42,394 nucleotides of DNA from a virus (Duplodnaviria; Caudoviricetes): positions 1 to 42,394 of IMG/VR virus record IMGVR_UViG_3300011441_000019; one strand, written 5' to 3'. Position 1 is the first letter of the stretch. Each line of letters begins with the position of its first letter. The notes under the pieces are model-generated. The model was not told the origin of the DNA. It saw nothing but the letters and a program-made list of their open reading frames with translations, and made no database searches. The position numbers and the translations under genes were made by a program. Positions 4,538-41,375 of this stretch are shown here, in pieces.

Positions 4538-4568
4538 TTCCTGACCCCCTGACTTCTTCCACCGCGGC

Positions 4569-5192
4569 GTGCCCGACACGTCGCAACTCATCGCGCGGCA
4601 CGCTGCGCGGCTCAAGAAACTCCTGGCCCGCCATAAGGCCGGAAAGAAACTCTCGCCCGAGGAGTTGAAGCTGCTCGGCGCGGGCGCGGATTCCACGGAC
4701 GCGGCAGACCGCGTCCCTACCTCGTACGACTCGATGGCGTCCGCCGCGGCGGCGCTGGACATCCCCAAGGGCACCCTGCAATGGGCGAAGGACCAGGGCG
4801 CGCCCGGGTTCAAAGGCTCGCGCGTCTATCCGCTGTTGCTCCTGCCGTGGCTCGCGAACGCGAACAAGGAGAAGGGCGAGCGGAGGCTCGACAAGCGCAG
4901 CCTCGAATGTGAATTGCTCCAGGAAAAGCTGGAGGCCCTTCGGGAACAGCGCGCGCGCGCGCGCGGGCTGTTCATCGAATGGGCCGCGGTCGAGCAATGG
5001 CAGCTCGGCCTGGCGCAACGGCTCAAGCTGGAACTCTCCGCCAAGCTCAAGAACGAGCTGCCCCCCAAACTCGAAGGCCTCCGCGCGCCCGAGATCGCCG
5101 CGAAGATGGACGGGCTCATCGGCGAGCTGGTGGACATCATCCGCCAGCCGGTCACGGCCGCGAAGGAGCAGGCTACTTCATCGCCTCAATGA
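4569..5192 (+). CDS. terS: Terminase small subunit (Nu1-like)
   Basis: HTH-like AAAALDIPKGTLQWAKDQGAPG followed by coiled coil; lies upstream of TerL. Confidence 0.65.
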   Translation: MPDTSQLIARHAARLKKLLARHKAGKKLSPEELKLLGAGADSTDAADRVPTSYDSMASAAAALDIPKGTLQWAKDQGAPGFKGSRVYPLLLLPWLANANKEKGERRLDKRSLECELLQEKLEALREQRARARGLFIEWAAVEQWQLGLAQRLKLELSAKLKNELPPKLEGLRAPEIAAKMDGLIGELVDIIRQPVTAAKEQATSSPQ

Positions 5193-5931
5193 ATCGTTTC
5201 GCACGACGTTCGATGAGGGCGCCGTTCATTTGCGGGGAGAGCGCGAGCCAGGGATTTTCCGCCGAGGCGTCGCGTTTGATTTCGGTATGACCGTATTCAA
5301 GAGGCGCGATCGGCGGCGCCCAATCACCAGGGGCGCGCCACTCCCAGGAGAACCCTTGCAGGCTCGAATCCAACCGCGCCTCGTGATGACGCGCCTGCAC
5401 GGCCAGCCAATCGAGCAGCTCCGCCGGCGGTTTCTCGGCGCCGCGCTGGCGTTCGATTTGCCGCATCATTTTGCGGCTGGTGGGCAGGGCGTGAGGATTG
5501 GACACCGGACGGCCTGAGCCAAGATCAAGGTACAGGCGCCGCAGACTTTCCATCGTGAACTCTTCGCACTCAGCGGCGGCGGATGACCACTGGGCCGGCA
5601 CTAGCCCCCACAAAGGATCCCAGCCGTGAATCCGATGCCGGTTTCGCCGCGGGTCGCAGTGGTAACGCACCACGTTCAGAATCTCCTGGCTCTGTTCGGG
5701 GCTCACGAGGCCCGTCGGCTGCATTTCCAGCCGCAAGTCCCAGGAGCTGGGTTTCCAGATGGAAATCCGATGGTGCTCGACTATCTCACCTGGATCGACG
5801 TAGCCCCAGTGCCACAGCGGCGCCGGCATCACCACATGGAAGGGGAACGGATAACGGCGGTGGGCGATCACTTCGCGAAAGGTTCGCTCGAATGAGTGCC
5901 GCAGCCAGTTCTGAAATTCCAGATCGTCCAT
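5173..5931 (-). CDS. Hypothetical protein (moron between terS and terL)
   Basis: 252-aa Trp-rich ORF exactly filling the terS-terL gap on the opposite strand. Confidence 0.7.
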   Translation of the reverse strand: MDDLEFQNWLRHSFERTFREVIAHRRYPFPFHVVMPAPLWHWGYVDPGEIVEHHRISIWKPSSWDLRLEMQPTGLVSPEQSQEILNVVRYHCDPRRNRHRIHGWDPLWGLVPAQWSSAAAECEEFTMESLRRLYLDLGSGRPVSNPHALPTSRKMMRQIERQRGAEKPPAELLDWLAVQARHHEARLDSSLQGFSWEWRAPGDWAPPIAPLEYGHTEIKRDASAENPWLALSPQMNGALIERRAKRFIEAMK

Positions 5932-5968
5932 GCACGGGTTAGGATTACTGACTGCGGGCTCAGCCGCA

Positions 5969-7930
5969 ATGTCAGGCCCGCACCCTCAACTGAACGCCGC
6001 CTGGGCACGCGCCTGCACCCCCGCCGACAAGCGCGAGATTTGGGAGTGGCTCCATGACGAGGGGGAATTCCCCTCCGGCACCTACGCCGTGCCGGGGCGC
6101 CTGGACATTTCCACCTGTCCCATGCTCAAGGAGCCGTTCCGCGCGCTGCGCTCGCCCATTGTCCGCAACGTGGTGGTGATGGCCGGCGTGCAATGCCTCA
6201 AGACCCTGCTCGGCGAAGGGTGGCTGCTCTGGAGCATCGTCAATGACCCCGGGCCCACCCAATGGCTCCAGCCCGATGACGAGGAGGCGCGCGAACATGC
6301 CCAGGAACGGTTTCTGCCGTTGGTCGAAAAGTTCCCGGCGGTCCACCGGTTCTTCACCGGCAGCCGTTTCGATAAGCAGAATAACTTCCTCAAGTTCGCC
6401 CACATGTTCCTGCGGATGGAAGGGGCCAATAACCGGGGCAATCTCCAGCGCAAGAGCATCAAGAACCAGATGCGCAGCGAAGTGTGGCAGGCGGGCAAGT
6501 GGCCGCCCGGCCGGCTCAAGGAAGCGGATTCACGCGGGCTCCAGTTCGTCCACAACTCAAAGTCGTATACCGAAAGCCAGCCCGGCTGGCATCTGGACTA
6601 TGGCGTGGATGACATGCACGCCGCCTTTCACGCCGGCGACCGGAACGAGCTGAATTTTCGGTGCGAGTCCTGCGCCCGGCTCCAGCCATTCACCTGGGAC
6701 CACCGACGCCAGGACGGCACCCGCGCGGCGCTTCGTTGGGACGATAATGAGCGCACGCGCCGTGAGAATGGCGAATGGCGCTGGGCCGAGCTGCTCCAGA
6801 CTGTCCGTTACGAGTGCATCCACTGCGGCCATCGGCATCATGACGATCCCTTAACACGCCGGCGGATGACCGCCAGCCTCGAATTCGTGCCGCAGAATCC
6901 GCAAGCCGACCCGGCCACGCGCACCTTCACCTGGAACCAGCTCGCCATGCCCACGCTCTCGTGGTTCGAAACGAAGATCGGCGGGGTGAAGAATTTCCTC
7001 ATCGCGCACGCCCAGGCCCGGCGCGGGCATGACGCCGCCCTGCGGGATTTCTGGATGAAAGTCTGCGCCGAACCGTACCACCCGGCGAAGCACGGCGCCG
7101 CCGGCGACCTGGAGACGATTGAACTCTCTCTCGACGCTCGGCCCTCGACCCTCGACCCGATTGAGGCCAACGGCATTTTGTTCAAGCATCGCCTCGGCGC
7201 GTGCGATGTGCAGCAGGATCACTTTTGGTTCCTCGCGGAAATCTGGAGCGACCAGGGCGACTCGCTCACGTTGCACGCCGAGAAATTGTTTGATTGGGAG
7301 ACGGTGATCCTGCGCCAGCAGCAGTTCGGGATTCTCGACCAGGACTTCACGGTGGACGTGTCCCACCGCTCCCTCGAGGTGAAGACGCAATGCACCGAGC
7401 GCGGGCACTGGGGCAGCCACGGAGGCCTCCGCGCCTGGCTGTGCTGGAAGGCGCTGCGCGGCTCCGACCAGCCGCATTTCATCTGGGTGCCCAAAACGGG
7501 CCCGCGCAAGGGCCAGCGGATCCAGCTCCCCTACACCTGGCCGCCCGAGGTGGGCGACCCCTGCGCGGGCCTGCCGGCGAACCATCCCAAGCGCGCGCAT
7601 TTCAAAGGGCGCACCTGCCCGGTGATCACCTGGAGCAACCCGACCATCAAGGACCTGGTGATCGCCCGGCGCGATGGCAAGGCCAAGGACGTGCAAAGCC
7701 TGGTCGCGCGCGGCGAATGGAACGAGGATTTCCGGATGCACATGCATAGCCAGCGGAAGATCCCCAAGCCGCGCACCAAGGGCAGCGACGTGTGGGTGTG
7801 GGTGAAGTTCCGCGATGATCACTTGCTGGACTGCAAATGCATGGTCACCGTGCGGGCCTTTCAGAAGGGGCTGCTGTCACCGGAGGGAGTCGAGGGTCGA
7901 GAGCCGAAGGACGAAGGCCCAGGCGGCTGA
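5969..7930 (+). CDS. terL: Terminase large subunit, lambda GpA family
   Basis: Adenine-binding/ATPase N-domain (PGRLDISTCP, VQCLKT, SEV), two CxxC zinc motifs, nuclease CDVQQDHFW and DHLLDC. Confidence 0.9.
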   Translation: MSGPHPQLNAAWARACTPADKREIWEWLHDEGEFPSGTYAVPGRLDISTCPMLKEPFRALRSPIVRNVVVMAGVQCLKTLLGEGWLLWSIVNDPGPTQWLQPDDEEAREHAQERFLPLVEKFPAVHRFFTGSRFDKQNNFLKFAHMFLRMEGANNRGNLQRKSIKNQMRSEVWQAGKWPPGRLKEADSRGLQFVHNSKSYTESQPGWHLDYGVDDMHAAFHAGDRNELNFRCESCARLQPFTWDHRRQDGTRAALRWDDNERTRRENGEWRWAELLQTVRYECIHCGHRHHDDPLTRRRMTASLEFVPQNPQADPATRTFTWNQLAMPTLSWFETKIGGVKNFLIAHAQARRGHDAALRDFWMKVCAEPYHPAKHGAAGDLETIELSLDARPSTLDPIEANGILFKHRLGACDVQQDHFWFLAEIWSDQGDSLTLHAEKLFDWETVILRQQQFGILDQDFTVDVSHRSLEVKTQCTERGHWGSHGGLRAWLCWKALRGSDQPHFIWVPKTGPRKGQRIQLPYTWPPEVGDPCAGLPANHPKRAHFKGRTCPVITWSNPTIKDLVIARRDGKAKDVQSLVARGEWNEDFRMHMHSQRKIPKPRTKGSDVWVWVKFRDDHLLDCKCMVTVRAFQKGLLSPEGVEGREPKDEGPGG

Positions 7931-7985
7931 GTTCGACTAGCATGGGGGCGGCTGTTTGGGGTTCCTGACTCGTGGCATTCATGCG

Positions 7986-8258
7986 ATGCCACTGGCCATC
8001 ACACGACGGAATTTCCCGGGCAAGACGCAAGCGTGGCTCGAGGCGCGCCTGGCCGAGGTGCTGGACGAGCTGGCCGCCGGCTCGTCCGTGGACGGCTGGG
8101 GCACGGGCGACGCCTCCGCGCACAAGGCGGTGGAGAAGAACCTCGGGGCCGAAAGGCGCCGGGATTTGCTGCTGAACGACCTGAGCATCCTCGCGCCCGC
8201 GACGTATCCGCCCGCGAGCTACACGCCGATCAAGGCCACCATCCCGCGCTATCTGTGA
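7986..8258 (+). CDS. Putative head-tail joining (gpW-like) protein
   Basis: 90 aa, helix-hairpin-helix pattern, located directly after TerL. Confidence 0.5.
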   Translation: MPLAITRRNFPGKTQAWLEARLAEVLDELAAGSSVDGWGTGDASAHKAVEKNLGAERRRDLLLNDLSILAPATYPPASYTPIKATIPRYL

Positions 8259-8420
8259 TGATCCGCCGCCTCTGGGAATTCGTGGAGATGTGCGTGGCCC
8301 ATGCCCTCCTGGCGTTTGTGGCCGTGGTGGTGATCGGGTCGTGTGCCGTGCTTTACCCCGGTCCGCTTGCTCATCGATCACGAAGCTCGAAAACGGCTCT
8401 GACTCGCGCGCCGCGCATCA

Positions 8421-8621
8421 GTGAAAACAATCATCGGCCGTTTGTTTCGCAGGCAGCGGAGCCCGTGTGCCACCAAACTGGACTTGCAGGAAATGGAAGG
8501 GCGCATCCTGAAGGCGCTTGGTGAGCGAGTGGACCCGAAGGCCGTGGAGAAACTGTCGAGCGCGACGGACAACCTGGAAACTGCCGTCGAAGCGAATCAA
8601 CCGAAACTTTCCGGCCAATGA
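8421..8621 (+). CDS. Small coiled-coil hypothetical protein
   Basis: 66-aa ORF preceded by CTGACT-N16 motif. Confidence 0.6.
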   Translation: MKTIIGRLFRRQRSPCATKLDLQEMEGRILKALGERVDPKAVEKLSSATDNLETAVEANQPKLSGQ

Positions 8622-8653
8622 CGGCCGGGAAAAACCAAAAAGAAAGGGCCATT

Positions 8654-8896
8654 ATGAATCCACATCTGACCAACCTCACCGACGACATCACCCGGGCAAC
8701 CACCGTGGCGCGCAGCGCGACCGTGCTGATTAACGGCGTTCAAACCCGGATCGATGCCGCGGTGGCCGCCGCCATTGCCAACGGGGCGACCGAGGAGCAA
8801 CTGAAACCAGTTTCCGATCTCTCGGACGCTTTGGAGGCGGAAACCAACGCGCTGGCCGCAGCGGTGGAAGCGAACACGCCACCGCCGGCGCCCTAA
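8654..8896 (+). CDS. Small coiled-coil phage protein
   Basis: Ala-rich amphipathic helices ending ALAAAVEANTP; GAAAGG upstream. Confidence 0.7.
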   Translation: MNPHLTNLTDDITRATTVARSATVLINGVQTRIDAAVAAAIANGATEEQLKPVSDLSDALEAETNALAAAVEANTPPPAP

Positions 8897-8925
8897 GCGC
8901 GAATTGACTGGCGCCCGGCGGCTGA

Positions 8926-9129
8926 TTGAACGGCGCTGAACAGGACCAGGACCACGCCGCGGCTCATCACTCGATTATGGGCAAGGCTTTGTTTGGGATT
9001 CTGGCGCCCGTGCTGGCCACGGGCGCCAGTTTCGTTTCCCAGCTCGAGGCCTGGCTGCGCGTCGCCAACCTGCTCGGCGCGCTCGTCGTCGTGGTGTTCA
9101 CCGTCCGATCGCTCCGGAAGAAAAAGTGA
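8926..9129 (+). CDS. Holin-like membrane protein
   Basis: Two hydrophobic segments, basic C-terminus RSLRKKK; TTGACT-N16-TTG. Confidence 0.55.
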   Translation: MNGAEQDQDHAAAHHSIMGKALFGILAPVLATGASFVSQLEAWLRVANLLGALVVVVFTVRSLRKKK

Positions 9130-9142
9130 GAGTGAACATCGC

Positions 9143-9358: not shown

Positions 9359-9369
9359 AAGGACGAAAT

Positions 9370-13171: not shown

Positions 13172-13719
13172 GCCTGCTGCTGACCCAACTGGCCGGCGGG
13201 CCGGTCACTTACACTTACACCGGCACAGGCGGGCTGGTCCTGGGCGGCACGGCCGCGGTCAGCAAGAGCAAGGATTTCCTGCCCACCGGAGGGCTGGTCC
13301 TGGGCGGGGCGGCGGCGCTGGCGAAGACCAAAACGATCACCGCCTCGGGCGGGCTGGTGTTCAACAGCGGGGCGGCCACCGAGTACGTTTCCGCGATTCC
13401 GCCGGCGCCGCCGGAGCCGACGACCTCCGGGGCCGAGGAATACGCGCCGCGTCGGATGCACGTCTTCCGGCCGCGGGGCGGGCTCGCTTTCGGAGGAGCG
13501 GGGATCTGCGGGATGCGGAGGACGTTCGTTGCCGCGGTTCAACGGCCAACGTTCAACGTTCAACGTTCAACGTTCAGTGGGACGGCGGCGGTGTGCCGAA
13601 GCTACTGCGCGCCCATCTCCGGGAAGTCCGCGTTCCGCGTTCCGCGTTCCGCGTTCCGAACGGAGTTCTCGCCTGACTGCGGGGAGGAGCTGGCCGTGGT
13701 GCTGGCCTTGTTGCAATGA
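13168..13719 (+). CDS. Hypothetical protein with GGLV(L/F)GG repeats
   Basis: GTGA overlap; four ~19-aa repeats (TGGLVLGGxAA); contains heptamer DNA repeats. Confidence 0.6.
   Translation: MSLLLTQLAGGPVTYTYTGTGGLVLGGTAAVSKSKDFLPTGGLVLGGAAALAKTKTITASGGLVFNSGAATEYVSAIPPAPPEPTTSGAEEYAPRRMHVFRPRGGLAFGGAGICGMRRTFVAAVQRPTFNVQRSTFSGTAAVCRSYCAPISGKSAFRVPRSAFRTEFSPDCGEELAVVLALLQ
13547..13658. repeat. Two heptamer tandem arrays: (CAACGTT)x4 and (TCCGCGT)x4
   Basis: Read directly at 13547-13574 and 13627-13658. Confidence 0.9.
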
Positions 13720-14555: not shown

Positions 14556-14583
14556 GCGGAACTTGACTGAGCGCGTCCGACTC

Positions 14584-14802
14584 GTGCGCGCCGAGTTGCC
14601 TGAGATTTCTTCCGAGAGTTCCCTGCCAAGTTCCATTCCCATCGCCGCGCTGCCGCGCCTGACCGAGCCGGGCCTCTTCCTTCGTTTCCCCAGCGGACGG
14701 GAGTTGCCGCTGGAGGTCACCCGCGATGGACGATTGGTGCGCGTTCCGCCCGCTGCGACGCGGGCGGGGACATCGCAGCGCGATTGTCCCTACCAGTCTT
14801 GA
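14584..14802 (+). CDS. Small hypothetical protein
   Basis: GTG 15 nt after TTGACT, in frame with ORF 14506..14802; 3' end overlaps a REP. Confidence 0.4.
   Translation: MRAELPEISSESSLPSSIPIAALPRLTEPGLFLRFPSGRELPLEVTRDGRLVRVPPAATRAGTSQRDCPYQS
14743..14794 (-). repeat. GTAG-type REP element (copy 1)
   Basis: Reverse complement GGTAGGGACAATCGCGCTGCGATGTCCCCGCCCGCGTCGCAGCGGGCGGAAC; diverged copy at 42023-42073. Confidence 0.7.
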
Positions 14803-14820
14803 CTCCCTTCAAGGCCGCGA

Positions 14821-15300
14821 ATGAATTTGCAAGAAGCTGTCGAGGCCATCCCCGGGCGGGTCACTGAATCCATCAAATCTCTGTTCGCCTCGGGCGACGA
14901 ACGGGTGGCCACGGCCACCAAGGCATCGACCGATGCCAACGCCGCCCGCGCCAGCGCGGAAAAGGAGCGGGACGATTTCAAGGCCAGGGCCGCGCAGGCC
15001 GAGGCGGACCTGGCCACGGCGCGGCAGAGCATCGCCACGCAGGGCGCGGAGTTGAAGGCCGCCCAGGAGAAGCTCACCAAACTCGAGGCCAGCCAGAAGA
15101 CCGTCGAGCAGCTCGCCGCCGAGAAGAGCCAGCAGCAGTGCGCGGCCCAGGGCGTGCCGCCCGGCACGCTGGAGAAGGCGAAGTCCGGCGCGGACGCCGG
15201 CAGCTCGAAGGGGCAGCAGATCACCCGCGCGCAGTTCGAGGCGCTTTCGCACAAGGACAAGGCCGCGTTCTGCAAAGGCGGCGGCGAGATCAAGGACTGA
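14821..15300 (+). CDS. Capsid scaffolding protein
   Basis: Long coiled coil and C-terminal ITRAQFEALSHKDKAAFCKGGG helix-loop-helix; between protease and capsid genes. Confidence 0.75.
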   Translation: MNLQEAVEAIPGRVTESIKSLFASGDERVATATKASTDANAARASAEKERDDFKARAAQAEADLATARQSIATQGAELKAAQEKLTKLEASQKTVEQLAAEKSQQQCAAQGVPPGTLEKAKSGADAGSSKGQQITRAQFEALSHKDKAAFCKGGGEIKD

Positions 15301-15303
15301 CGG

Positions 15304-15336
15304 GATTTCCGATTTCCGATTTCCGATTTCCGATTT
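15304..15336. repeat. Heptamer tandem array (GATTTCC)x4
   Basis: Read directly in scaffold-capsid intergenic region. Confidence 0.9.
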
Positions 15337-15368: not shown

Positions 15369-16661
15369 ATGAAGTTCCCCCTGTTCCGCCTCGCCGCCAT
15401 CACCGCGCTGTTCGCGCTGTGCGCGCAAATCTTTATGGCCACCGGCATGTACGCCGCCTGGCTGGTGTTGTTCGTCGGCTCGGCGGTGCTGGCTAACCCG
15501 CGGTTTTCCCCGGGCCTGTGCGCCAACACGCTGACGAGCCTCATCCCCGACATTTACGCCGCGTTGGACGTCGTCTCGCGCGAGCTGGTGGGCCTCATCC
15601 AGGCGTGTGCGCGCGATAGCCGCGCGGACCGCGTGGCCGCCAACCAGACGTTGCGCATCCCGATTTCGCCGGCCAATGCGGCGGGCGGCAATATCACGCC
15701 GGCCATGACGCTGCCGGCCGCAGCCGACCAGACGATCCTCAACAACACGCTGACGATCTCGAAGCAACGGTTTTTTCCGTTCTCCTGGACGGGTGAGGAG
15801 CAGAAGTCCGTGGATTACGGCCCGGGCTTCCTCACGCTCAAGCAGTATCAGATCGCGCAGGCCATCCGCGCGGCGGTGAACGAGGTGGAGGTGGACGTGG
15901 CCACGGCGGCTTACCAGGGCGCCAGCCGCGCCTTCGGCACCGCGGGCACCACTCCGTTCGCCACGAGCATCGTCGACCTGGCGCAGATCAAAAAGATTCT
16001 GGACGACAATGGCACGCCCATGTCGGACCGCTCGCTGGTGATGAACACCACGGCGGGGGTGAATTTCCGCAGCCTGGCCAACCTCTACAAGGTGAACGAG
16101 GCGGCGGATGCCTCGCTGCTGCGCAAGGGCACACTGGGCAGCATTTACGATTTCGGCGTGCGCGAGAGCGCGCAGATCCCGACGGTGACCAAGGGCACGG
16201 GCGCGGGTTACCTGGTGAACAACGGGGCGGGCTACCCGATCGGCGCGACCGCCATCACGGTGGACACCGGCGCCGGCACGATTCTCAAGGGCGACGTGAT
16301 CACGTTCGCCGGCGATACGAACAAGTACGTGGTGGGCGCGGCGCTGTCCGGCGCCGTCGTCACGCTGGCTCTGCCCGGTTTGCGCCAGGCGGTGGCGGAC
16401 AATGCGGCCATCACGGTGGGCAACAATTTCGCGGGCAACGTGGCGTTCAGCCGCAACGCGGTGTTGCTGGCCACCCGGCTGCCGGCGATCCCGGAGGAAG
16501 GCGACCAGGCGAGCGACCGCATGGTGGTGACGGACCCGAATTCCGGGTTGTCCTTTGAGTTCGCGGTCTACCCTGGCTTCCGGATGAATGTTTACCACGT
16601 CTCGCTGGCGTGGGGCGTGAGCGCGATCAAGCCGGAACATATCGCCATTCTGCTGGGCTAA
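15369..16661 (+). CDS. Major capsid protein, P22 coat-like, with 51-aa hydrophobic leader
   Basis: ANTLTSLIPDIYAALDVVSRELVG..., beta insertion domain (GTILKGDVITFAG), C-terminal LAWGVSAIKPEHIAILLG. Confidence 0.9.
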   Translation: MKFPLFRLAAITALFALCAQIFMATGMYAAWLVLFVGSAVLANPRFSPGLCANTLTSLIPDIYAALDVVSRELVGLIQACARDSRADRVAANQTLRIPISPANAAGGNITPAMTLPAAADQTILNNTLTISKQRFFPFSWTGEEQKSVDYGPGFLTLKQYQIAQAIRAAVNEVEVDVATAAYQGASRAFGTAGTTPFATSIVDLAQIKKILDDNGTPMSDRSLVMNTTAGVNFRSLANLYKVNEAADASLLRKGTLGSIYDFGVRESAQIPTVTKGTGAGYLVNNGAGYPIGATAITVDTGAGTILKGDVITFAGDTNKYVVGAALSGAVVTLALPGLRQAVADNAAITVGNNFAGNVAFSRNAVLLATRLPAIPEEGDQASDRMVVTDPNSGLSFEFAVYPGFRMNVYHVSLAWGVSAIKPEHIAILLG

Positions 16662-19092: not shown

Positions 19093-19289
19093 TGAAAGGC
19101 GCGAGGCACGAGGCGCGAGGCGCGATGGAACCGGCGGAGTTCCGGGTGCGGGCGCTGTTGCGGTTTCCGTTCTCGCCGTGGATCCGCGAGGCGACCATCG
19201 CGGCGTTGCGCGCGGATCCGGTGACGGCGCCGTTCGTGCCGGCGGAGGTGGGGCCGGGGCAATCCCCCAATCTCTTCCCTGACTCCTGA
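19092..19289 (+). CDS. Small hypothetical protein
   Basis: TGATG overlap; begins with (GGCRCGA)x4 repeat. Confidence 0.4.
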   Translation: MKGARHEARGAMEPAEFRVRALLRFPFSPWIREATIAALRADPVTAPFVPAEVGPGQSPNLFPDS

Positions 19290-19298
19290 CCGCGGGGC

Positions 19299-19859
19299 GT
19301 GACGCGGGACCAACGCGCGCGAAGTATCTCGCCCGCCATTCCCCCGCGCACCAAAATGACCATGACGTTACAGGAGCAGAGTCCCAAAATACTTCGCGGC
19401 ATCGAGCTGACCCGGCAGATCAAGTTGCTGACCGAGGAGCTGGATGCGTTGAAGGCGGAGTTTCGCAGCGAGGCGGAGCAGGAAATCCGGCGCGCCGGCA
19501 CGGGCGAGCTGCCGGGCCAAAGCTGGACGTTCAACACGGAGCCGCGCGAGTTCAAGGCGCTGGTGTCCTTCCCGAAGATCGGGCTGCTGCGCGAGTTATT
19601 CTTCATCAATAAAATTCCGCACCGTTACGCGGAGGACCCCAAGACCGGGGACAAGGTGCCGACGCCCATCGATTGCGACGTGCGCGAGGTGTGCGGGGAG
19701 CATTTCACGAAGTTGTGGACGCCGTTTTACCGGCCGGCCAAGGCCTTCCCGGAGCTGGTGCAGGCGATGATCGAGCCGAAGGCCCGCGCGCAGCGGCTGC
19801 TGCGGATGCTCGAGGAGCCGCCGCGGGCGGGGAGCGTGAAATTCGATGTGGTGAAGTGA
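19299..19859 (+). CDS. Hypothetical protein
   Basis: 186 aa (alternative ATG 19356); coiled-coil N-terminus. Confidence 0.7.
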   Translation: MTRDQRARSISPAIPPRTKMTMTLQEQSPKILRGIELTRQIKLLTEELDALKAEFRSEAEQEIRRAGTGELPGQSWTFNTEPREFKALVSFPKIGLLRELFFINKIPHRYAEDPKTGDKVPTPIDCDVREVCGEHFTKLWTPFYRPAKAFPELVQAMIEPKARAQRLLRMLEEPPRAGSVKFDVVK

Positions 19860-20851: not shown

Positions 20852-20881
20852 TGGGTGGCGACTGACTTCGGGCGCCAGCCT

Positions 20882-21367
20882 GTGGCGACGTTTTACAATG
20901 ATTTGATCGAGAAGGGAGAGGCGGCCATTAAGGCGGTGTTGGAGGGGGCGGATACGGGCATCGATGCGGCTCAGATTCTCACTTCGTTTTCCACGCAGCG
21001 GGAGACCAAGGGGCGCGCGAGCATCATCATCAATGGCCTGGGCGGCCAGGAGGATGGCCACAATTCGGGGAACGAACGGCTTTCGTGGGTGGTGTCGGTG
21101 GAGAGTAACGCGGACGATGTGAAGGACGAGGAGACGACGGAGGAGAATGGCGCGGCGCGGGCCAGGCACCGGGATTATTGCGCAAAGGTGTTCGATGCGC
21201 TGAAGGCCCCGGGGTTGCACACGGCGTTATCGGCCGCGGTGGAGGAGTTCACGGTGTTCGATAGCATCCAGCGCAGCCGCGGGCCGAGCCGGCTGGTGAA
21301 GCGGAAGTTTCAAAGTGAGTTCCGGCTGGAGTTCAGTTGCGCGCCCAGCGCGATTGCGGCGAGCTGA
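20882..21367 (+). CDS. Putative tail terminator protein
   Basis: Size, alpha/beta pattern and position before the tube gene; GTG 14 nt after CTGACT. Confidence 0.5.
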   Translation: MATFYNDLIEKGEAAIKAVLEGADTGIDAAQILTSFSTQRETKGRASIIINGLGGQEDGHNSGNERLSWVVSVESNADDVKDEETTEENGAARARHRDYCAKVFDALKAPGLHTALSAAVEEFTVFDSIQRSRGPSRLVKRKFQSEFRLEFSCAPSAIAAS

Positions 21368-21424
21368 CCGCAATGGGAAAGAGCGGACCGGTCCACCAAC
21401 CATTGACTTGTTGGGCGAGCGCGC

Positions 21425-21874
21425 ATGGCTGAGCAATACGGAACGGCGCATATTCACGGAATGTCCGGGGCGTCCATCGGCAGCATCGCCGCGGTGTCGC
21501 CCAACCTGCAGGGGGGCTCGCTGGCGGTCATCGGCGGGGATGACGAGATCAAAAACCAGGCCGGAGAGGTGACGGGCTTGATTGGCTCGAATCATGTGCT
21601 GGAGGCCACGTTTGAATTCATTCCGGAGGGGACCACGATCTCCAATGCGCGGGTGGCCGCGACGTTACCGAAGGTGAATGCGCCGGTGCTGATTACCGGG
21701 ATGCCGATCGTGGCGTGCGCCGGGTTCACGGATGCTTACAACACGAACGGCGGGAATACGCAGCCGTGGTTTTTCAAGAGCGGGCGGATCAATCACCTGG
21801 CGGATGGCAAGTGGACGGGGACATTTACGTTGCGCCGCTATTTGCTGGTGACGTCGGGCACGCCGCTCGCGTGA
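21425..21874 (+). CDS. Putative major tail tube protein
   Basis: 149 aa, beta-rich, DEIKNQAGEVTG hairpin loop; position. Confidence 0.6.
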   Translation: MAEQYGTAHIHGMSGASIGSIAAVSPNLQGGSLAVIGGDDEIKNQAGEVTGLIGSNHVLEATFEFIPEGTTISNARVAATLPKVNAPVLITGMPIVACAGFTDAYNTNGGNTQPWFFKSGRINHLADGKWTGTFTLRRYLLVTSGTPLA

Positions 21875-23024: not shown

Positions 23025-24187
23025 TGCTCGGCGGTCTCTTCAATCTGATTTTCCGCCTGGGGACGGATAACACCGACTTCAACCGGGGGCTGGGCGAGGC
23101 GACGGCGCGGGCGAATACGGCGGCCAGAGGGATGACGGCCGGGTTTACGAGAGCCTTTGCCAGCTTGTTCGCGGCGGGCGCGCTGACGAAACAGATCATC
23201 GACCTGGGCGGCGAGGTGAAGGATTTGAGTGACCGGCTGGGGGTGAGTGTGGAGGAGGTGCAGGAGTTCAGTCTGGCGGCGCGGTTGGGCGGGCAGGACG
23301 CGGGCACGTTCGCCCGGGCCATCGAACGCATCCGGCTAGCCATGGTGGAGGGGGCGTCCGGCAAGAATCCATTGGCACAGTTCGGGATCACGCTCCAGGA
23401 GCTGCAAAGCGGGGACGCGGTGGGCATCTTGCGAAAACTTTCCGAGGCGCTCAAGGACACGGCGATGAGTGCGGACCAGTTCAAGTCTCTGGTGGATGTG
23501 ATGGGTGCGCGCGGGGCGGGCGGCGTGATTAACATGCTCAAGGAGCTGCAAAATGCCAAGGGCAGCTTTCTCACGAAGGAGGAGGTCGATCTGCTGGACC
23601 GCGGCGGCGATGCGCTCACGAAGTTCTGGACGAACCTCAAGTTGATGGGGGCCAAGTTCATTTTTCTGGATGAGAAGGCAAAGGTCCAATTGGGCCTAAG
23701 GAAGCAGGCGCCGGCAGCGGGTGCGCTGCCGGCCGTGGAGGGCATCGAGGCGCAGATGGCGCTGGAGAAGAAGACCACGGAGGACCTGGCCAAGCTCCGC
23801 CAGGAGACCGATGAGCTGAATGAAAAGAATCGCAGGGCGCAGCTCACGGACGAGGAGCGGCTCAATGAGTTGCTGATGGAGCGCACGGAGTTGATCCGGC
23901 GGCTCCAGTTCGCGCTGGATGAGAAAGGGGCGGCCGAAATCCAGTTTCAACTGGCGCAGAACGCCGCCGGGTTGCTCGTCGCGCAGAAGGCGCTGGCGCC
24001 GGGCGCGTTTTCGTTGCCGTCGTCCCGCGGGCTGCCGCGCAACACGGATGCGTTGTTGAGCGTGGGGAATTTCCTGGGGAGCGCGCCGGATTCGGAGTTG
24101 AGCCGGCGCATGGAGCAGCAAACGCGGGAGCTGAAGGCGATCCGGGCCGCCATCGAAAAGCAGGGCATCAAACTCATTTTTGACTGA
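23024..24187 (+). CDS. Tape measure protein (short)
   Basis: LGTDNTDFNRGL N-terminus, DLSDRLGVSVEEVQ, long Ala/Leu/Glu helices. Confidence 0.8.
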   Translation: MLGGLFNLIFRLGTDNTDFNRGLGEATARANTAARGMTAGFTRAFASLFAAGALTKQIIDLGGEVKDLSDRLGVSVEEVQEFSLAARLGGQDAGTFARAIERIRLAMVEGASGKNPLAQFGITLQELQSGDAVGILRKLSEALKDTAMSADQFKSLVDVMGARGAGGVINMLKELQNAKGSFLTKEEVDLLDRGGDALTKFWTNLKLMGAKFIFLDEKAKVQLGLRKQAPAAGALPAVEGIEAQMALEKKTTEDLAKLRQETDELNEKNRRAQLTDEERLNELLMERTELIRRLQFALDEKGAAEIQFQLAQNAAGLLVAQKALAPGAFSLPSSRGLPRNTDALLSVGNFLGSAPDSELSRRMEQQTRELKAIRAAIEKQGIKLIFD

Positions 24188-24205
24188 CTGGCAATGGAAC
24201 CGCAT

Positions 24206-24331
24206 ATGAGAATTGTCGATCTAATCCTGTTCTGGTTTCTCGCCCTCCCATCCTACTGGCCACTCGCGATCGTGCTCATGCTTATACTCTCCGCCTTCGC
24301 CCTGGGCTGCCTCGCCGGCCGGCGCCTTTGA
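24206..24331 (+). CDS. 41-aa membrane peptide (not in ORF track)
   Basis: MRIVDLILFWFLALPSYWPLAIVLMLILSAFALGCLAGRRL*; CTGACT-N16-ATG; fills TMP-next gene gap. Confidence 0.55.
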   Translation: MRIVDLILFWFLALPSYWPLAIVLMLILSAFALGCLAGRRL

Positions 24332-26504: not shown

Positions 26505-26537
26505 ACCCGGGGGCCTTGACTGGGACATCGGTCGGGC

Positions 26538-27137
26538 ATGGCGCTGCTGACGTTGTTTTATGAGGCCACGTCCAAGTCGCTGGCCGCGGCGCGCAATCTC
26601 CCGCTCGGGTACCAGCTCCCGGCGTTGCGGCAGGAGGATATCGTGTCGCTCGAGCTTTCGATCCTCAAAAGCATCAGCGAATTTTCCCAGACCCCGAATG
26701 AGCTGGTGAATCTCACCGGTTATTCGGCGCGCGTGTCCCTCGGGACGGCGGCCAGCGTGCTGGCTTCGCAGAACACGTTCACCATCGATGCAACGGCGAC
26801 GAAGCTGACCGGCCTGCTGAACTTGAACACGGCCGGCGTCAATGCGCTGACGGATCGGCAGTCGGGGATTTATTTGGAGCTGCTGTTCACGGAGCCCGGC
26901 GGAGGCATCTCGGGGCAGCGGTTCCCGGTGTTCATCGAGAAGGCGGTGTTTATGTCGGGCACGGTGGTGGCGCCGCCGAGCGATGTGGCGCTGGGCCGGC
27001 TGGAGGCGCAGCGCACTTACGTGGCCAAGGAGGGCGCGGCCGGAGAGGCGCAGATTTTTACGAGCGCCGATGGCCTGAAGAAGATCATCAAGTACGCGCA
27101 TAACGACGGTTCGATGCGGGAGGAGCCGATTTCATGA
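26538..27137 (+). CDS. Putative fibre adaptor (BppU-like N-domain)
   Basis: Ig-like pattern (VNLTGYSARVSLG...GLLNLNT...YLELLF) before the fibre gene. Confidence 0.5.
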   Translation: MALLTLFYEATSKSLAAARNLPLGYQLPALRQEDIVSLELSILKSISEFSQTPNELVNLTGYSARVSLGTAASVLASQNTFTIDATATKLTGLLNLNTAGVNALTDRQSGIYLELLFTEPGGGISGQRFPVFIEKAVFMSGTVVAPPSDVALGRLEAQRTYVAKEGAAGEAQIFTSADGLKKIIKYAHNDGSMREEPIS

Positions 27138-27433
27138 ACCCCACGCCGGAACAATGCCAGGCGCTCATTGAGGCGCTGGCTCCATTTGAATCGCCGTATG
27201 TGCTGACGCCGGACGAAGAGGTCTGTCTGAATATCCTCCGCGAGGCGGCCCAGAAGATCGCCGCGGGCGAGGACCTGGTGCCGCCGGTCGAGGGGCAGAC
27301 GCACAAGTTGCGGCTGTGGCGGCGGGTGAGTGTGGCGTTCATCCATCCCGAGGCGCCTCGGGCGCGCCAGGTCACGGCGCCGGATGGCCGGAGCCCGGCA
27401 GCCCAGGGATTGACCTTGGAGCCCCGCAAATGA
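27134..27433 (+). CDS. Hypothetical protein
   Basis: 99 aa with ATGA overlaps at both ends. Confidence 0.55.
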   Translation: MNPTPEQCQALIEALAPFESPYVLTPDEEVCLNILREAAQKIAAGEDLVPPVEGQTHKLRLWRRVSVAFIHPEAPRARQVTAPDGRSPAAQGLTLEPRK

Positions 27434-30920: not shown

Positions 30921-30947
30921 TGGGGTGACCGACGGGACTCGAACCCG
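30921..30947 (-). other. attP core = 3' end of tRNA (His-like)
   Basis: Minus strand CGGGTTCGAGTCCCGTCGGTCACCCCA: T-loop, acceptor 3' strand, C73 discriminator + CCA; 20 bp from integrase stop; no 5' tRNA half. Confidence 0.85.
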
Positions 30948-33550: not shown

Positions 33551-33589
33551 CTTGTTGACACTTGTTAAGTCTTATGAAGACTTGACGAT
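33551..33589. promoter_or_regulatory. Divergent promoter/operator of genetic switch
   Basis: TTGACA 33555-60; inverted repeat GTTAAGTCTT-atg-AAGACTTGAC; CTT recurring every 10 bp four times. Confidence 0.75.
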
Positions 33590-33781
33590 ATGCCTAAAGT
33601 GAAACGGACGCCTCCCGAAAAGCCCAAAGCCGAAAACGTCACCAAAACCATCAGCCTCCCCGGCGACCTGGCCGGCGAAGCCGACCGCAAAGTGGCCCTC
33701 GACCCCGAACTGGACTTCTCGAAATACGTTCGTGGATTGATCCGGCGCGACCTCGCCGCCGACGACGAGAAAGCCGCCTGA
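33590..33781 (+). CDS. Ribbon-helix-helix Cro-analogue
   Basis: TKTISLPGDL...DFSKYVRGLIRRDL; first gene of the rightward early operon. Confidence 0.75.
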   Translation: MPKVKRTPPEKPKAENVTKTISLPGDLAGEADRKVALDPELDFSKYVRGLIRRDLAADDEKAA

Positions 33782-37257: not shown

Positions 37258-37801
37258 AATCGATCTCGGCCCCTGTTGCGTTTGCGAAGGACCGAACGCG
37301 CGGGTGATCCTGAACCTCCCCTTTGCCAGCCCCGGGGCCCGCGGCTGGGCCTGCTTCACCTGCGGCGTCGGCGCCGCGGACGGCGCCGCCAAAGGCGCCA
37401 TTGCCGTGCTGTGCGAACCGTGCGCCGCACCCGTCGAGAGAGAAGGGCGAGACCCCGCCACCTTCCTGCGGTTCGTCTGCGATGGCGACGATTCCAAACA
37501 CCGCGTTCCCCTTGCCGGCCTCAACCTCGCCCCGCGCTTCGGGCACGACATGGCGTTGCACCAGGAGACTTGGAAATGCGCCCGGTGCGGCTGCACGCAA
37601 GACACGCCCTGCGAACACTCGGATGGAGAAAGCTGCGCGTGGGTTCACGCCACGCTCTGCACCGCCTGTGCCTCCGCTGACGAATTGCAGGCCCTGGCAA
37701 AGGACTTTGAACGATTCGGCCGCGAACAAGAGCGCGCCATGCTGCGCTTCCTCTACGCGCGCACGCCCGCCGAAGTGAGCCGCATCATTGTGCCCGGATG
37801 A
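37235..37801 (+). CDS. Cys-rich multi zinc-finger protein
   Basis: Several CxxC pairs, including CARCGCT...C...CAWV...LCTAC. Confidence 0.65.
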   Translation: MNSQPQNEIDLGPCCVCEGPNARVILNLPFASPGARGWACFTCGVGAADGAAKGAIAVLCEPCAAPVEREGRDPATFLRFVCDGDDSKHRVPLAGLNLAPRFGHDMALHQETWKCARCGCTQDTPCEHSDGESCAWVHATLCTACASADELQALAKDFERFGREQERAMLRFLYARTPAEVSRIIVPG

Positions 37802-38187
37802 AAAACCCAAAAGCCCTAATGAACACACAAGCCCAAGCCCAGCCGCCCGCGCCCACCCCGCTCCCGCTCCCGCTCTCCCCAGCCGAGCTCAAACAATTTC
37901 TCGAGCGCATCCACCGGCAGATACAGGCGAACCGGGAAGCCATCGCGGAAGACGAACCGAACTGGACCGACCCGCGCCGCGAGCTCTGGCAACAACTGCT
38001 CGATTGCGAGTACTACGCGCTACAATCCATCGAGGCCATGGACGAACTGGCGGAGGGCGGCTACGTCTGCAACCGCTGCCGCGGCTCCGGCGAGATTGTC
38101 GCGCCGCCGGTGTATCCGCGCTTCCATCGCGCCACAGGCGTCTGCCCGGATTGCCACGGCGAAGGCAAAGTCGCCCTGCGCACATGA
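37798..38187 (+). CDS. Protein with DnaJ-type CxxCxGxG zinc finger
   Basis: CNRCRGSG and CPDCHGEG. Confidence 0.65.
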   Translation: MKNPKALMNTQAQAQPPAPTPLPLPLSPAELKQFLERIHRQIQANREAIAEDEPNWTDPRRELWQQLLDCEYYALQSIEAMDELAEGGYVCNRCRGSGEIVAPPVYPRFHRATGVCPDCHGEGKVALRT

Positions 38188-38474
38188 ACTCCGCGGGCCA
38201 CCTCATTGCCGCGGTCCTGGTGAAAGACCACGCGGCCCGAATGCACCTCCTCGATCGCCACTGGCGCATCCTGGTCAACGAACACCACTGGCACCGGTGC
38301 CATCCCACCGGCACGCAACTGCCCATGCGCGAGCACGCGCACAATCCCTGGCGCGAGCTCAACGCGATCATGACCCTCAACGGCGAGACGCCGCACGGGT
38401 TTGAAGACATGGTCTATGAGCAACTCCGCCAGGCCAGCCTCATCGAACCCGCCGCCCACTTTGCCGTCGCATGA
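38184..38474 (+). CDS. Hypothetical His-rich protein
   Basis: ATGA overlaps at both ends. Confidence 0.55.
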   Translation: MNSAGHLIAAVLVKDHAARMHLLDRHWRILVNEHHWHRCHPTGTQLPMREHAHNPWRELNAIMTLNGETPHGFEDMVYEQLRQASLIEPAAHFAVA

Positions 38475-38707
38475 GCTACCGCCGCGTTACCTGGCGCCGG
38501 GTTGATCGCAGCCTGCCCGATGACGAGCTCACCGTGCTGCTCGCCTTGGCGGACGGCGAAGTGTGGACCGGCTTCCGCGACGCCGGGCAGTGGCGCTACG
38601 TCTCCGCCGACCCCATTGACGCGGCCGTCACCCACTGGGCCGAATTCCCGCTGCCCCCGCGGAAGAAAAAAACTCCATCTGCGGTTAAAAAAGGAACCCA
38701 TGCCTGA
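38471..38707 (+). CDS. DUF551-like protein
   Basis: W..V...LPD...VL...W...VTHWAEFPLPP. Confidence 0.7.
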   Translation: MSYRRVTWRRVDRSLPDDELTVLLALADGEVWTGFRDAGQWRYVSADPIDAAVTHWAEFPLPPRKKKTPSAVKKGTHA

Positions 38708-39347
38708 ATTTGGAAAGCCCGAACTCCGCGCCCTGCTCGCGGCGTTCTCCTGTTGCAACGGACAATGGCAGGCGCCGCTCGATGCGGTGCTGGCCGCCTT
38801 CCGCCGTCCGGATGAAGGCCTGCGCGTGCTGCGCGGCCTCCACCCGGGTTTCCTCCAATTCGACGAAGCTGCCCGCACCCTCATGCTCATGCGCGGGCGC
38901 ATTGCCGAAACCCTCGGGCTGCCTCCGTTGGAGAGGCAGCCCGCCTTGTTCCCGAAGGATGAATTTGCCTCCGCCATGGCGGAAGCAGATTCTCCGGACC
39001 CACCCGCGCGCGCGGCACTCCCGCGCGCGCACCATGGTCATGTCATGCTTCATGATCATGATCCGGATCATGCCTTAAACATGGATCATGATCGAAATGC
39101 GCGTGGGAGCCGCGCCAACCAGTTGCTCGTCGAGCATATCTTTCCCGGCCTGCGGGAGGATTACCGCCAGGCCTGGACCCGGCGTGTGGCCGAGAACGCG
39201 CGGCTGGTCGAACTGAGCATCGAGGAGGCGCTCATGCCCCGGGCCCGCAACGGCGTGATGGCGCCGGCCCGCAACCTGGTCGCCTACGCGAACCGTTTTT
39301 ACCTCGACCACATCCGCAAGGCGGGGCCGCGCCGCACCACCGTATGA
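38700..39347 (+). CDS. Hypothetical, possible replication initiator
   Basis: Two helical domains separated by a linker encoded by a CATG/GATC repeat; C-terminal RNLVAYA. Confidence 0.45.
   Translation: MPEFGKPELRALLAAFSCCNGQWQAPLDAVLAAFRRPDEGLRVLRGLHPGFLQFDEAARTLMLMRGRIAETLGLPPLERQPALFPKDEFASAMAEADSPDPPARAALPRAHHGHVMLHDHDPDHALNMDHDRNARGSRANQLLVEHIFPGLREDYRQAWTRRVAENARLVELSIEEALMPRARNGVMAPARNLVAYANRFYLDHIRKAGPRRTTV
39033..39093. repeat. CATG/GATC cluster, candidate replication origin
   Basis: 8 CATG and 5 GATC in 61 bp, counted directly. Confidence 0.75.
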
Positions 39348-40171
39348 CAAACGCACCACAAAGACCGGTGCTGCGCTATCACGGTGGCAAATGGCTGCTG
39401 GCACCGTGGATCATCAGCCACTTTCCTGAACATCGGATTTATGTCGAACCGTTCGGCGGCGCTGCCAGCGTGCTGATGCAAAAGCCGCGTTGTTACTCGG
39501 AGGTTTACAATGAGCGGAGCGGCGAGGTGGTGAACCTGTTTCGCGTATTGCGAGAGCGGGGCCACGAACTGCGTGAGGCCCTGATGACGACGCCATTTGC
39601 CCGTGACGAATATCGATGCAGCTTTGAGCCGTGCACCGACGAGTTGGAGTCGGCGCGCCGACTCGTAGTCCGCAGCTTTCAAGGGTTTGGTTCCAACAGC
39701 AATCGGCGCGAGGTGCGTTCTGGGTTTCGCAACAACGCAAACAGATCAGGGACGACACCAGCGCACGACTGGGAGCATTTGCCGCACTGCATGGACGCGA
39801 TGATTGATCGTCTTCGAGGGGTGGTGATTGAGAACAAGGACGCCATGGACCTAATGCAGCAAATGGATAGAAACGACGTCCTGCACTACTGCGATCCACC
39901 GTATCCGCACAGCACCAGAATGGAGTCGAGCGCAACCAAGGGTTACGACCACGAGATGTCGGATGACGATCACCGGCGCATGGCCAAGGTACTCAATGCG
40001 CTCAACGGCAGCGTGGTTTTGAGTGGGTATCCATGTGTGCTTTACGACGAGGAATTATTCCCGCACTGGCACCGCTTATCTCGCCGGGCACTAGCAGACG
40101 GCGCTCGCGAACGGACGGAGTGCCTGTGGTTGAACCCGCGGGCAGTCGATGCGAATCGGAGGCTTCTATGA
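39344..40171 (+). CDS. DNA adenine methyltransferase (Dam/D12 class)
   Basis: RYHGGK, YVEPFGGAAS, YCDPPY, VVLSGY. Confidence 0.93.
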   Translation: MTNAPQRPVLRYHGGKWLLAPWIISHFPEHRIYVEPFGGAASVLMQKPRCYSEVYNERSGEVVNLFRVLRERGHELREALMTTPFARDEYRCSFEPCTDELESARRLVVRSFQGFGSNSNRREVRSGFRNNANRSGTTPAHDWEHLPHCMDAMIDRLRGVVIENKDAMDLMQQMDRNDVLHYCDPPYPHSTRMESSATKGYDHEMSDDDHRRMAKVLNALNGSVVLSGYPCVLYDEELFPHWHRLSRRALADGARERTECLWLNPRAVDANRRLL

Positions 40172-40181
40172 GACCGACTCC

Positions 40182-40433
40182 ATGACAAACGAAATCTATC
40201 AAGTGACGCAGGACCAACTGGTCATCGGCGCCAGGTATTTGTCGGCGCTGGACATGGACGGCTTCCGGGCGCGCATCTCCAGGAGCGAGGCGATTGCGCC
40301 CATCGTGGACCCCACCCTTTATCGCCAGGCGCACCGGCGTTTGGAAGCGATCAACAATCTGGCCGCGGCCGCGCAATCCGTTCAGGCCGCCCTGCGCGCG
40401 CTCAACGCAGTGGTGTCTTCGGAGGACTCATGA
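40182..40433 (+). CDS. Hypothetical protein
   Basis: 83 aa helical ORF. Confidence 0.6.
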   Translation: MTNEIYQVTQDQLVIGARYLSALDMDGFRARISRSEAIAPIVDPTLYRQAHRRLEAINNLAAAAQSVQAALRALNAVVSSEDS

Positions 40434-40741
40434 GCGACCTACCCGACATTGAGTGTCCGCGTTGCCATCGGATCAACTTCGGTTGGCAGCCGCGGGTGAG
40501 CTGCGAGAAATGCCACTGGACGATTCGCCCATCGCCGGTCGCGACGCCCTTCGGCTTCGATGTTCTCATCGAGCAACGCACCATGAATCTCATCTCCGGC
40601 GAGCCCATGGTCCGACACTACAAAGGCAATGAGACGACCGCACGCCGGCGCGCGAGGACTTTCGGGCGCGTCGTCGCCGTCGTGCCGTTGAGCAAGGAAC
40701 AATGGATCGCCGCCTACGGCGATCCTGACGTGCGCGATTGA
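40430..40741 (+). CDS. Zinc-ribbon protein
   Basis: CPRC...CEKC. Confidence 0.6.
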   Translation: MSDLPDIECPRCHRINFGWQPRVSCEKCHWTIRPSPVATPFGFDVLIEQRTMNLISGEPMVRHYKGNETTARRRARTFGRVVAVVPLSKEQWIAAYGDPDVRD

Positions 40742-40781
40742 TCTCCGTTCCGCCCCCGAATTGACTTATTTTCCGGCGGTT

Positions 40782-41375
40782 GTGACTCACACCCACGGCG
40801 CCGGACCATCAGTGCCGCTCGAATGGAACAACGGGCAACCCGTCCCAATTGCCATCCAGCATTTTGATTTCGAGGCGCTCGATTCCCCCGAGGACATCGC
40901 CAAAGAACTCCTCTCCGCCGGCCACAGCCTGGCCGAGGCCCTCGAGGAACGCGCCATCGCCCTCCTCAAGTTCGGCACCGCCGCCCAGCTCACCCGGCTC
41001 ATGCCCCGCCTCCAGGCCCAGTTCCGCGATGCCATCGTGGCCGACACCCTCTCTTACCTGGCCTCCAGTGATAACGCCAAGCTCGACGTCCAGTTGCTTT
41101 CCGTGGCCATCGACCTCAGCCACATGCAAGGCGCCAAAGTGCCCGACGTCTGCCGCGCCTTCGGGATCCGCAAACAAGCCGGCTACCAGCGCCTCGAGCG
41201 ACTCCTCGCCGCCCACGGGCTCACCCATCTGCGCACCGATCGGCGCTCGCCGGAAGCACGCGCCAGGATGCGCCGCCGCAACTATCGGCACCGTGAGAGT
41301 GGTCGAGAGCCGAAGGTCGAGAGACGAGAGCCCGAGCCATCGACCATCGACCCTCGGCCCTCGACAGCCGCATGA
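40782..41375 (+). CDS. HTH protein resembling sigma70 region 4; candidate late regulator
   Basis: QGAKVPDVCRAFGIRKQAGYQRLERL; GTG 15 nt after TTGACT. Confidence 0.55.
   Translation: MTHTHGAGPSVPLEWNNGQPVPIAIQHFDFEALDSPEDIAKELLSAGHSLAEALEERAIALLKFGTAAQLTRLMPRLQAQFRDAIVADTLSYLASSDNAKLDVQLLSVAIDLSHMQGAKVPDVCRAFGIRKQAGYQRLERLLAAHGLTHLRTDRRSPEARARMRRRNYRHRESGREPKVERREPEPSTIDPRPSTAA

Follow-up and report, generated by a model that had tools for sequence, protein, structure and literature searches.

Many late genes of a temperate phage are preceded, at a distance of 14 to 16 nucleotides (nt) from their start codons, by a (C/T)TGACT box, and sequence comparisons lead us to favor, with moderate confidence, the interpretation that this box is a compact late promoter that lacks a -10 element, gives rise to near-leaderless messages, and probably needs a phage protein. 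The phage is represented by a whole virus record of 42.4 kb (42,394 nt, hereafter the window), which reads as the genome of a temperate phage and encodes a lambda-type TerL (lambda GpA type) together with a portal, an S49 protease, a P22-gp5-like capsid protein, and a tyrosine integrase. With at most two mismatches, its tRNA-end-like attP core (Table 1) matches 8 of the 10 Verrucomicrobiota-labelled genomes and none of the 14 remaining ones, and the host is therefore likely a member of the Verrucomicrobiota, an assignment that holds at the level of phylum only. No close members of the TerL clade were found in 401 genomes of this phylum or in 201 genomes of the G415 order (best E 5e-108), TerL used alone as a query found no loci, and no Rfam family was found within the window.

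A box at fixed distance from late start codons

All 13 hexamers and start codons were located exactly at the coordinates claimed in the original prediction, and comprise seven copies of CTGACT and six of TTGACT with spacers of 14 nt (three sites), 15 nt (four sites), or 16 nt (six sites; Table 1). The hexamer as such is not over-represented in the window (18 copies of YTGACT found, 22 expected). However, 16 of the 18 copies lie on the + strand, which carries the late genes, and 12 of these 16 are followed at 14-16 nt by a start codon opening a reading frame of at least 50 amino acids (background 0.063, p 5e-12); at the thirteenth site the reading frame (24206) has 41 amino acids only, and the remaining + strand copies, at 13673, 24180, and 30258, are without a suitable start. 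Among 1,175,475 tests of word and spacing, YTGACT at 14-16 nt ranks first (Bonferroni 6e-6). Scored against a list of starts assembled from public gene calls and longest-reading-frame starts, in which the early set held the helix-turn-helix (HTH) gene at 40812 and not at 40782, the box precedes 10 of the 32 late starts and none of the 19 early ones, and 20,000 shuffles gave three boxed starts at most. The enrichment over shuffled sequence and the association with mostly late genes that had been proposed are thus borne out.

These controls bear directly on the proposal that the pattern reflects chance combined with free choice of start codons, for which it can be said that the hexamer count is within expectation and that two of the 13 starts are doubtful; the outcome of the multiple-testing and shuffle controls, together with retention of the box by orthologous genes (see below), leaves this proposal a negligible probability. 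Chance is excluded as an explanation, and the YTGACT motif is real.

Nine of the 13 starts (4569, 5969, 7986, 8926, 14821, 20882, 21425, 24206, and 26538) equal public gene calls, and for the 8421 reading frame the publicly called protein has an identical length. The HTH gene is publicly called at 40812, and its homologues begin near 40782. At 19299 the public call begins instead at ATG 19356, and site 19279 is therefore possibly a leadered copy; 14584 is absent from the public calls and is without homologue in the clade, and the box at 14563 may mark the start point of a long-leader message. Both 14584 and 19299 are doubtful as start codons. A fourteenth site, the variant TTGACC-N14-ATG at 27410/27430, has a start that agrees with the public call. 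For the 8926 reading frame an alternative start exists at an ATG 17 codons downstream, and the 149-amino-acid gene at 21425 had been named a putative tail tube gene in the original prediction.

Table 1. Box sites and associated features of the window (positions in nt from its first base).
Position	Strand	Feature	Remark
4549..4571	+	CTGACT-N14-GTG, ahead of likely small terminase gene	box in 4/11 terS-like orthologues found, several being fragments
5948..5971	+	CTGACT-N15-ATG, ahead of terL (lambda GpA type)	public call
7965..7988	+	CTGACT-N15-ATG, 90-aa gene after terL	7/9 orthologues boxed at 14-17 nt: 6 TTGACT, 1 TTGACA
8399..8423	+	CTGACT-N16-GTG, 66-aa reading frame	called protein of equal length
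8904..8928	+	TTGACT-N16-TTG, 67-aa hydrophobic reading frame, holin-like by inspection	public call
14563..14586	+	TTGACT-N15-GTG, 72-aa reading frame, doubtful	not publicly called
14799..14823	+	TTGACT-N16-ATG, 159-aa gene upstream of capsid gene	public call; TGA is stop of upstream reading frame
19279..19301	+	CTGACT-N14-GTG	public call at ATG 19356
20862..20884	+	CTGACT-N14-GTG, 161-aa gene	public call
21403..21427	+	TTGACT-N16-ATG, 149-aa gene	public call; G407 orthologue has TTGACA-N16
24184..24208	+	CTGACT-N16-ATG, 41-aa hydrophobic reading frame	public call; TGA is stop of tape-measure-like gene
26516..26540	+	TTGACT-N16-ATG, 199-aa gene	public call; TTGACT-N16 in 2/2 orthologues found
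27410..27432	+	TTGACC-N14-ATG variant, 774-aa gene with YadA head repeat	public call
30921..30946	-	tRNA 3'-end-like attP core	adjoins integrase; basis of host assignment
33555..33592	+	TTGACA-N16-AAGACT-N7-ATG, contrast site, 63-aa gene 33590	ordinary-geometry leaderless promoter-like
40761..40784	+	TTGACT-N15-GTG, HTH gene	homologues start near 40782
40782..41375	+	197-aa HTH protein, candidate trans-acting factor	weak likeness to sigma region 4
41372..42013	+	LmbU-like protein, overlaps HTH gene stop	NF038070 E 4.8e-14

The boxed genes are those that do not overlap the preceding gene, and unboxed genes mostly overlap or abut it. The TGA of the box serves as the stop codon of an upstream reading frame at just 3 of the 13 sites, and a reading of the box as a stop-codon signal was rejected for this reason.

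Conservation in related phages

The YTGACT form is kept before orthologous genes in the terminase clade of the window. Within a 10-row TerL clade that includes the window (SH-aLRT 99), 29 YTGACT and 2 TTGACA boxes were counted at 13-17 nt on both strands; of the two exceptions, one is antisense in the window and the other lies internally in L159. In sister rows L162, G407, and L177 the sites lean toward TTGACA and in L037 toward TTGACT; the T form would therefore have arisen only once or twice, a low number of events that weakens the case for the promoter interpretation, the tree being a quick one in which 8 of 55 regions have no TerL row.

Beyond the clade, other Verrucomicrobiota prophages display TTGACA at 13-16 nt, and G029 has CTGACA at seven starts. 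Among 58 genome loci picked by capsid protein, at least three boxed starts occur in 7 of 10 Verrucomicrobiota loci, and among the best 40 of the 58 listed, none of the 48 non-Verrucomicrobiota loci was found to have as many. Similarly, 80 loci selected solely through the HTH protein, a redundant set with many near-duplicates, show a sense-strand TTGACA peak at 13, 14, 15, and 16 nt (37, 32, 20, and 6 of 270) compared with 53 antisense occurrences in total. Mean spacing is 14.8 nt for T-type boxes (23 sites) and 13.9 nt for TTGACA boxes (169 sites), a difference with p 8e-5 uncorrected for kinship. As a query against IMG/VR, the window-type HTH protein matched one record, and the T-type sample is therefore small. 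The box is missing from eleven prophage regions of the G415 order, and a pooled scan of these regions returned an SD (Shine-Dalgarno) word only. Taken together, these comparisons indicate that YTGACT is a variant of a layout common to Verrucomicrobia prophages. The signal had been read correctly as non-canonical; its clade-wide conservation, its kinship to TTGACA, and the candidate regulator gene behind the site at 40761 had been missed.

Relation to host promoters

A -10 element, preceded at a distance of about 17 bp by a -35 box, is taken to be a requirement of sigma70-class promoters. The late hexamer agrees with the -35 consensus TTGACA at five of six positions (TTGACT) or four of six (CTGACT), and a comparison with host DNA, proposed along with the original prediction, found the box layout absent before host genes. 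Specifically, five host genomes contain 322 matches at N13-16 versus 275 at N19-22, with 7 of the 13 matches in G001 falling in its 32.6-kb prophage contig, and in 760 kb of host DNA the word TTG[AC]NN peaks only at 28-32 nt before starts, with no peak at 13-16 nt. This host peak consists of TTG-16/18-TAnnnT-5/8-start promoters (19/59 and 15/53 TAnnnT starts), and the late box is therefore some 16 bp closer to the start. Although region 4.2 of sigmaA is identical across the five hosts, hosts of the G415 order carry T at position 6 of the -35 box in 18/46 cases versus 7/42 (p 0.03, in a sample that includes prophage DNA), and the box variant may therefore follow the host. The window itself holds one ordinarily spaced TTGACA site (33555) beside the compactly spaced YTGACT boxes.

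Between 4200 and 22500, a single sigma70-like site was found, on the opposite strand. This scarcity weighs upon a model in which the box is an operator at which a phage repressor or roadblock silences late genes in the lysogen. Mycobacteriophage stoperators, mentioned in PMC3203893, provide a precedent, and the many intergenic copies in one orientation, including that ahead of the phage's own HTH gene, fit such a model; with no upstream promoters to block in this interval, no need of a roadblock for a 13-16 nt spacing to the codon, and a site of six bases without dyad or shared flank, short for an operator, we consider it very improbable.

Flanking sequence: DNA or RNA signal

Analysis of the surrounding bases upheld the statement that neither a consistent SD sequence nor a -10 hexamer accompanies the box. 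A TAnnnT -10 box is found 15-19 nt after the box at 0 of 13 window sites and 3 of 184 sites overall, and inside the spacer at 1 of 13 and 6 of 184; SD words occur in 0 of 13 window spacers and 18 of 215 overall. No 4-mer stands at a fixed offset in more than 2 of the 13 sites, and a -10-like pause element after the box is absent, positions 2-7 of the spacer being GC-rich and A-poor. An extended -10 reading, with the TG of ATG taken as TGn, was rejected, as no -10 follows. The box cannot act as the -35 element of an ordinary promoter for these genes, since no -10 is present and transcription from about 29-31 nt downstream would begin within the coding sequence.

Upstream of boxed starts, the adjoining 12 nt have a GC fraction of 0.68 versus 0.54 for unboxed starts (116 vs 588 genes, p 3e-14), and predicted folding upstream of starts in the window is stronger for boxed than for unboxed genes (-13.3 vs -8.2 kcal/mol, 13 vs 12 genes, p 0.008). 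Such GC-rich, tightly folding bases would make a poor ribosome landing site. They suit DNA that lies outside the message, yet would make opening harder, the stretch to be opened having a GC fraction of 0.72 versus 0.64 for the genome; this, together with the missing -10, speaks against the promoter interpretation.

A second feature is the pyrimidine-purine (YR) step at spacer position 14/15, present in 13 of the 23 T-type cases in which the codon comes after position 15 (background 0.23, p 5e-4); the position was picked after viewing the window (6/10), and the relatives alone give 7/13. At TTGACA-type sites the step is at 15 in 19/43 and at 14 in 28/89. A further 30 boxes are located 20-73 nt upstream of a start; past position 13 their A content rises from 0.21 to 0.34 (p 0.013, with p 0.71 for the control), with a YR step at 14-15 in 20/30 versus 19/39, which is without significance (p 0.15). 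Together these data suggest a transcription start about 14 bp downstream of the box.

The same observations can be set against a reading in which the box acts in mRNA: YUGACU on a long late transcript would be recognized by a phage protein or by the ribosome, allowing translation to begin 14-16 nt further on, in a host where SD sequences are little used. Consistent with this reading are the fixed distance to start codons, the restriction to the sense strand, the identity of boxed genes as non-overlapping ones, the rarity of SD words in spacers, and the finding that the profile of the HTH protein has as its best natural match a UPF0122 protein (E 0.003), from an RNA-associated family. We nonetheless regard an RNA signal as unlikely: most phages carry the exact -35 consensus, 30 copies lie far from a start, the GC-rich spacer would fold, and the YR step is fixed relative to the box and not to the codon. 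Of the two options originally offered, the shifted single-box promoter is thus favored over the translation signal on the basis of the YR step, the long leaders, and GC content.

A candidate phage factor

The compact promoter probably needs a phage DNA-binding protein, and the predicted HTH gene at 40782 is a candidate for the switch acting on the late box. The box at 40761 raises the possibility of self-regulation; no box was seen ahead of its orthologues in G406 and L173. An LmbU-like gene follows at 90 of 100 HTH hits with room downstream; the LmbU-like protein of the window scores 52.7 bits against NF038070, below the cut-off of 125, and is thus a distant relative. The pair lies near packaging genes in all eight relatives read except on the contig of G001, where a distant copy was found.

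For the HTH protein, Pfam, PHROG, and NCBIfam returned no match, neither HTH query matched a phage in INPHARED, and the ESM Atlas offered only unnamed clusters, under 0.9. Its structure model (pLDDT 87) retrieved sigma factors at the head of both fold searches, with Foldseek E values of 0.2 or worse and a best Z of 5.9 tied with ordinary HTH proteins, so that the likeness to sigma region 4 is weak and below significance. The gene at 3645 was dropped as a candidate regulator, the ESM Atlas having given no usable match for it.

The co-occurrence of box and HTH protein is variable, and the exceptions weigh against this candidate. Among 13 near-complete virus records picked by capsid, two have an HTH match, each with six boxed starts, and of three other such records read whole, one has three boxed starts and two have 0-1. 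G636 has three TTGACA sites and no HTH match, the boxed prophages of G003, G005, and G418 gave no match with the first HTH profile, and 7 of the 11 unboxed G415-order regions carry an HTH protein of the family, mostly diverged.

Sigma residues R584 and E585 read -31 and -33 according to the review PMC2613000, and a contact of R584 with -30 was dropped because this review gives -31. Aligned by eye, the start of the HTH helix has K or R at R584 and Q or A at E585. In a survey of helix versus box extended to 10 further stretches, lysine at the first helix position accompanies YTGACT (the window, G406, L173, L037, and L169) and TTGACA (G134, G344, G631, G1187, G744, and G702) alike, and a residue code from HTH helix to base 6 was rejected on this ground.

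The position of the HTH gene just ahead of the packaging genes in several relatives, and the presence of AlpA among its tied fold matches (Z 5.4), are also what might be cited for a role of the box in elongation, as a pause or loading site comparable to lambda PR' at which a Q- or AlpA-like HTH protein loads and sustains late transcription. In the Q-lambda complex (PMC9388147), host sigma region 4 is moved to a -35-like site directly upstream of region 2, displacing region 3; this geometry is the same as that of the late box, and a -35-like element can induce a pause according to PMC3326312. The pause known from that source depends on a -10-like element and on a promoter close by, and region 4 is displaced once the RNA is long; Q systems, moreover, have one site, not 13, and the fixed distance to the start codon is left without a reason. 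We judge such a role improbable.

Proposed mechanism

Under the compact-promoter interpretation, transcription would begin about 14 bases past the box, leaving leaders of 0-3 bases, and activity would need the phage protein to be present. An HTH of sigma-region-4 type would read the box beside sigma region 2: host leaderless promoters can be written box-17-6-6/8 and the late box box-1-6-6/8, where one base, a six-base slot, and a gap of 6-8 bases would make up 13-15 nt. The placement of host region 4 in the Q-lambda complex (PMC9388147) provides a precedent for this geometry, and Thermus phage Lalka27a (bioRxiv 10.64898/2026.04.20.719267) one for densely set leaderless late promoters. The product of gene 40782 would provide the switch through one of two routes that appear about evenly balanced: it could reposition host sigma region 4, or it could recognize the box directly. 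In a tentative and rather doubtful form of the second route, the phage HTH could be a stand-alone mimic of sigma region 4 that reads the hexamer, docks by host region 2, and initiates transcription 14 bp further downstream with no -10 box; each lineage might then, with similar doubt, have its own word (TTGACA, YTGACT, or CTGACA) while host region 4.2 stays identical. Unboxed genes, which mostly overlap or abut an upstream gene, would be reached by translational coupling.

Comparison with known systems

A search of mostly open literature, judged from listings and abstract openings, found no published description of the box. If functional, a promoter that consists of a single -35-type word placed 14 bp ahead of the start would represent a new geometry of initiation, known to date from a paused complex only, to which the window adds a lineage with a distinct word and with spacing extended by about one base, as well as a genome that uses TTGACA at normal and YTGACT at compact spacing. 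If the phage HTH reads the box, these phages would offer naturally occurring 20-bp promoter-activator pairs that are orthogonal to one another. Additionally, the box improves start calling in Verrucomicrobiota phages.

The box falls outside canonical, -10-only, SD or start-associated, and Q-type sites by their defining features, and resembles each of them in part. Firstly, it shares with ordinary and leaderless sigma70/sigmaA promoters a -35-like hexamer, a predicted start at or next to the start codon, and a pyrimidine before the first base; unlike these promoters, it has no -10, lies about 16 bp closer (13-16 vs 28-32 nt), has a GC-rich spacer, and in the window clade has T as its last base and often C as its first. 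Secondly, the Q-loading complex of lambda PR' resembles the proposed arrangement in that region 4 is placed by a phage protein at a -35-like site beside region 2, and differs, according to PMC9388147, in being a paused elongation complex at a single locus, where a Q binding element and a -10-like element are present; the late box occurs at 13 sites that have no -10-like word and no shared flank. Thirdly, the proposed promoters have a counterpart in Thermus phage Lalka27a (bioRxiv 10.64898/2026.04.20.719267), whose numerous late promoters follow a consensus specific to the phage, give mostly leaderless messages, and have a proposed phage factor; its consensus, however, is a -10 box, TAGGGT, situated 6 bp upstream of the start, whereas the late box is a -35-like word 14 bp before it. 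Lastly, the start-associated sequences of Cluster K mycobacteriophages, as described in PMC3203893, are likewise motifs of one orientation tied to start codons, but comprise 13 bp with an SD core, lie 3-7 bp from the codon, and precede non-structural genes, whereas the late box comprises 6 bp without an SD, lies 14-16 nt from the codon, and precedes structural genes.

Box Variants and Their Placement

In addition to the YTGACT box of the window clade and the TTGACA box of other Verrucomicrobiota prophages, a third variant of the box, CTGACA, is found in the prophage on contig C27 of genome G029 (L317-L318), where it lies 14-16 nt upstream of 7 genes and the HTH gene encodes the helix RQSAHAR. 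In prophages in the order of G412 (L478, L483, L485, L488, L504, and L505), a TTGACA box often precedes the gene directly following that for the HTH protein, the candidate trans-acting factor, with a spacer ending in GT. Several relatives (L160, L169, L173, and L037) carry terS/terL or the HTH gene on the strand opposite the portal and capsid genes, and the orientation of the box follows the strand of each gene concerned. The box is absent from four prophage-like regions in the order of G415 (L356, L357, L359, and L362), which rely on Shine-Dalgarno words instead and encode a diverged HTH that ends in WRNRGQRHAWNW.

Additional Features of the Window

Features of the window
Feature	Position	Remark
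Gene with P-loop ATPase and GNAT acetyltransferase region	166-1323	phrog_11143
Heptamer repeat, capsid gene leader	15305-15335	ATTTCCG in tandem, about four copies
Capsid gene	15369-16661	430 aa in public gene call
tRNA 3'-end-like attP core (putative)	30921-30946	adjoins integrase
ORF seemingly spanning record ends	42077-42394 joined to 1-247	

The phrog_11143 gene is also present in G134, and a sequence identical to the putative attP core occurs in two Verrucomicrobiota genomes. In the public gene call, the capsid protein carries approximately 50 hydrophobic residues N-terminal to ANTLTSLIPD, where its relatives start, and this extension resembles a signal or membrane anchor. No exact terminal repeat was found at the window ends. 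That an ORF appears to cross these ends suggests that the genome is circular, and this ORF resembles one located after the LmbU-like gene in the related locus L173.
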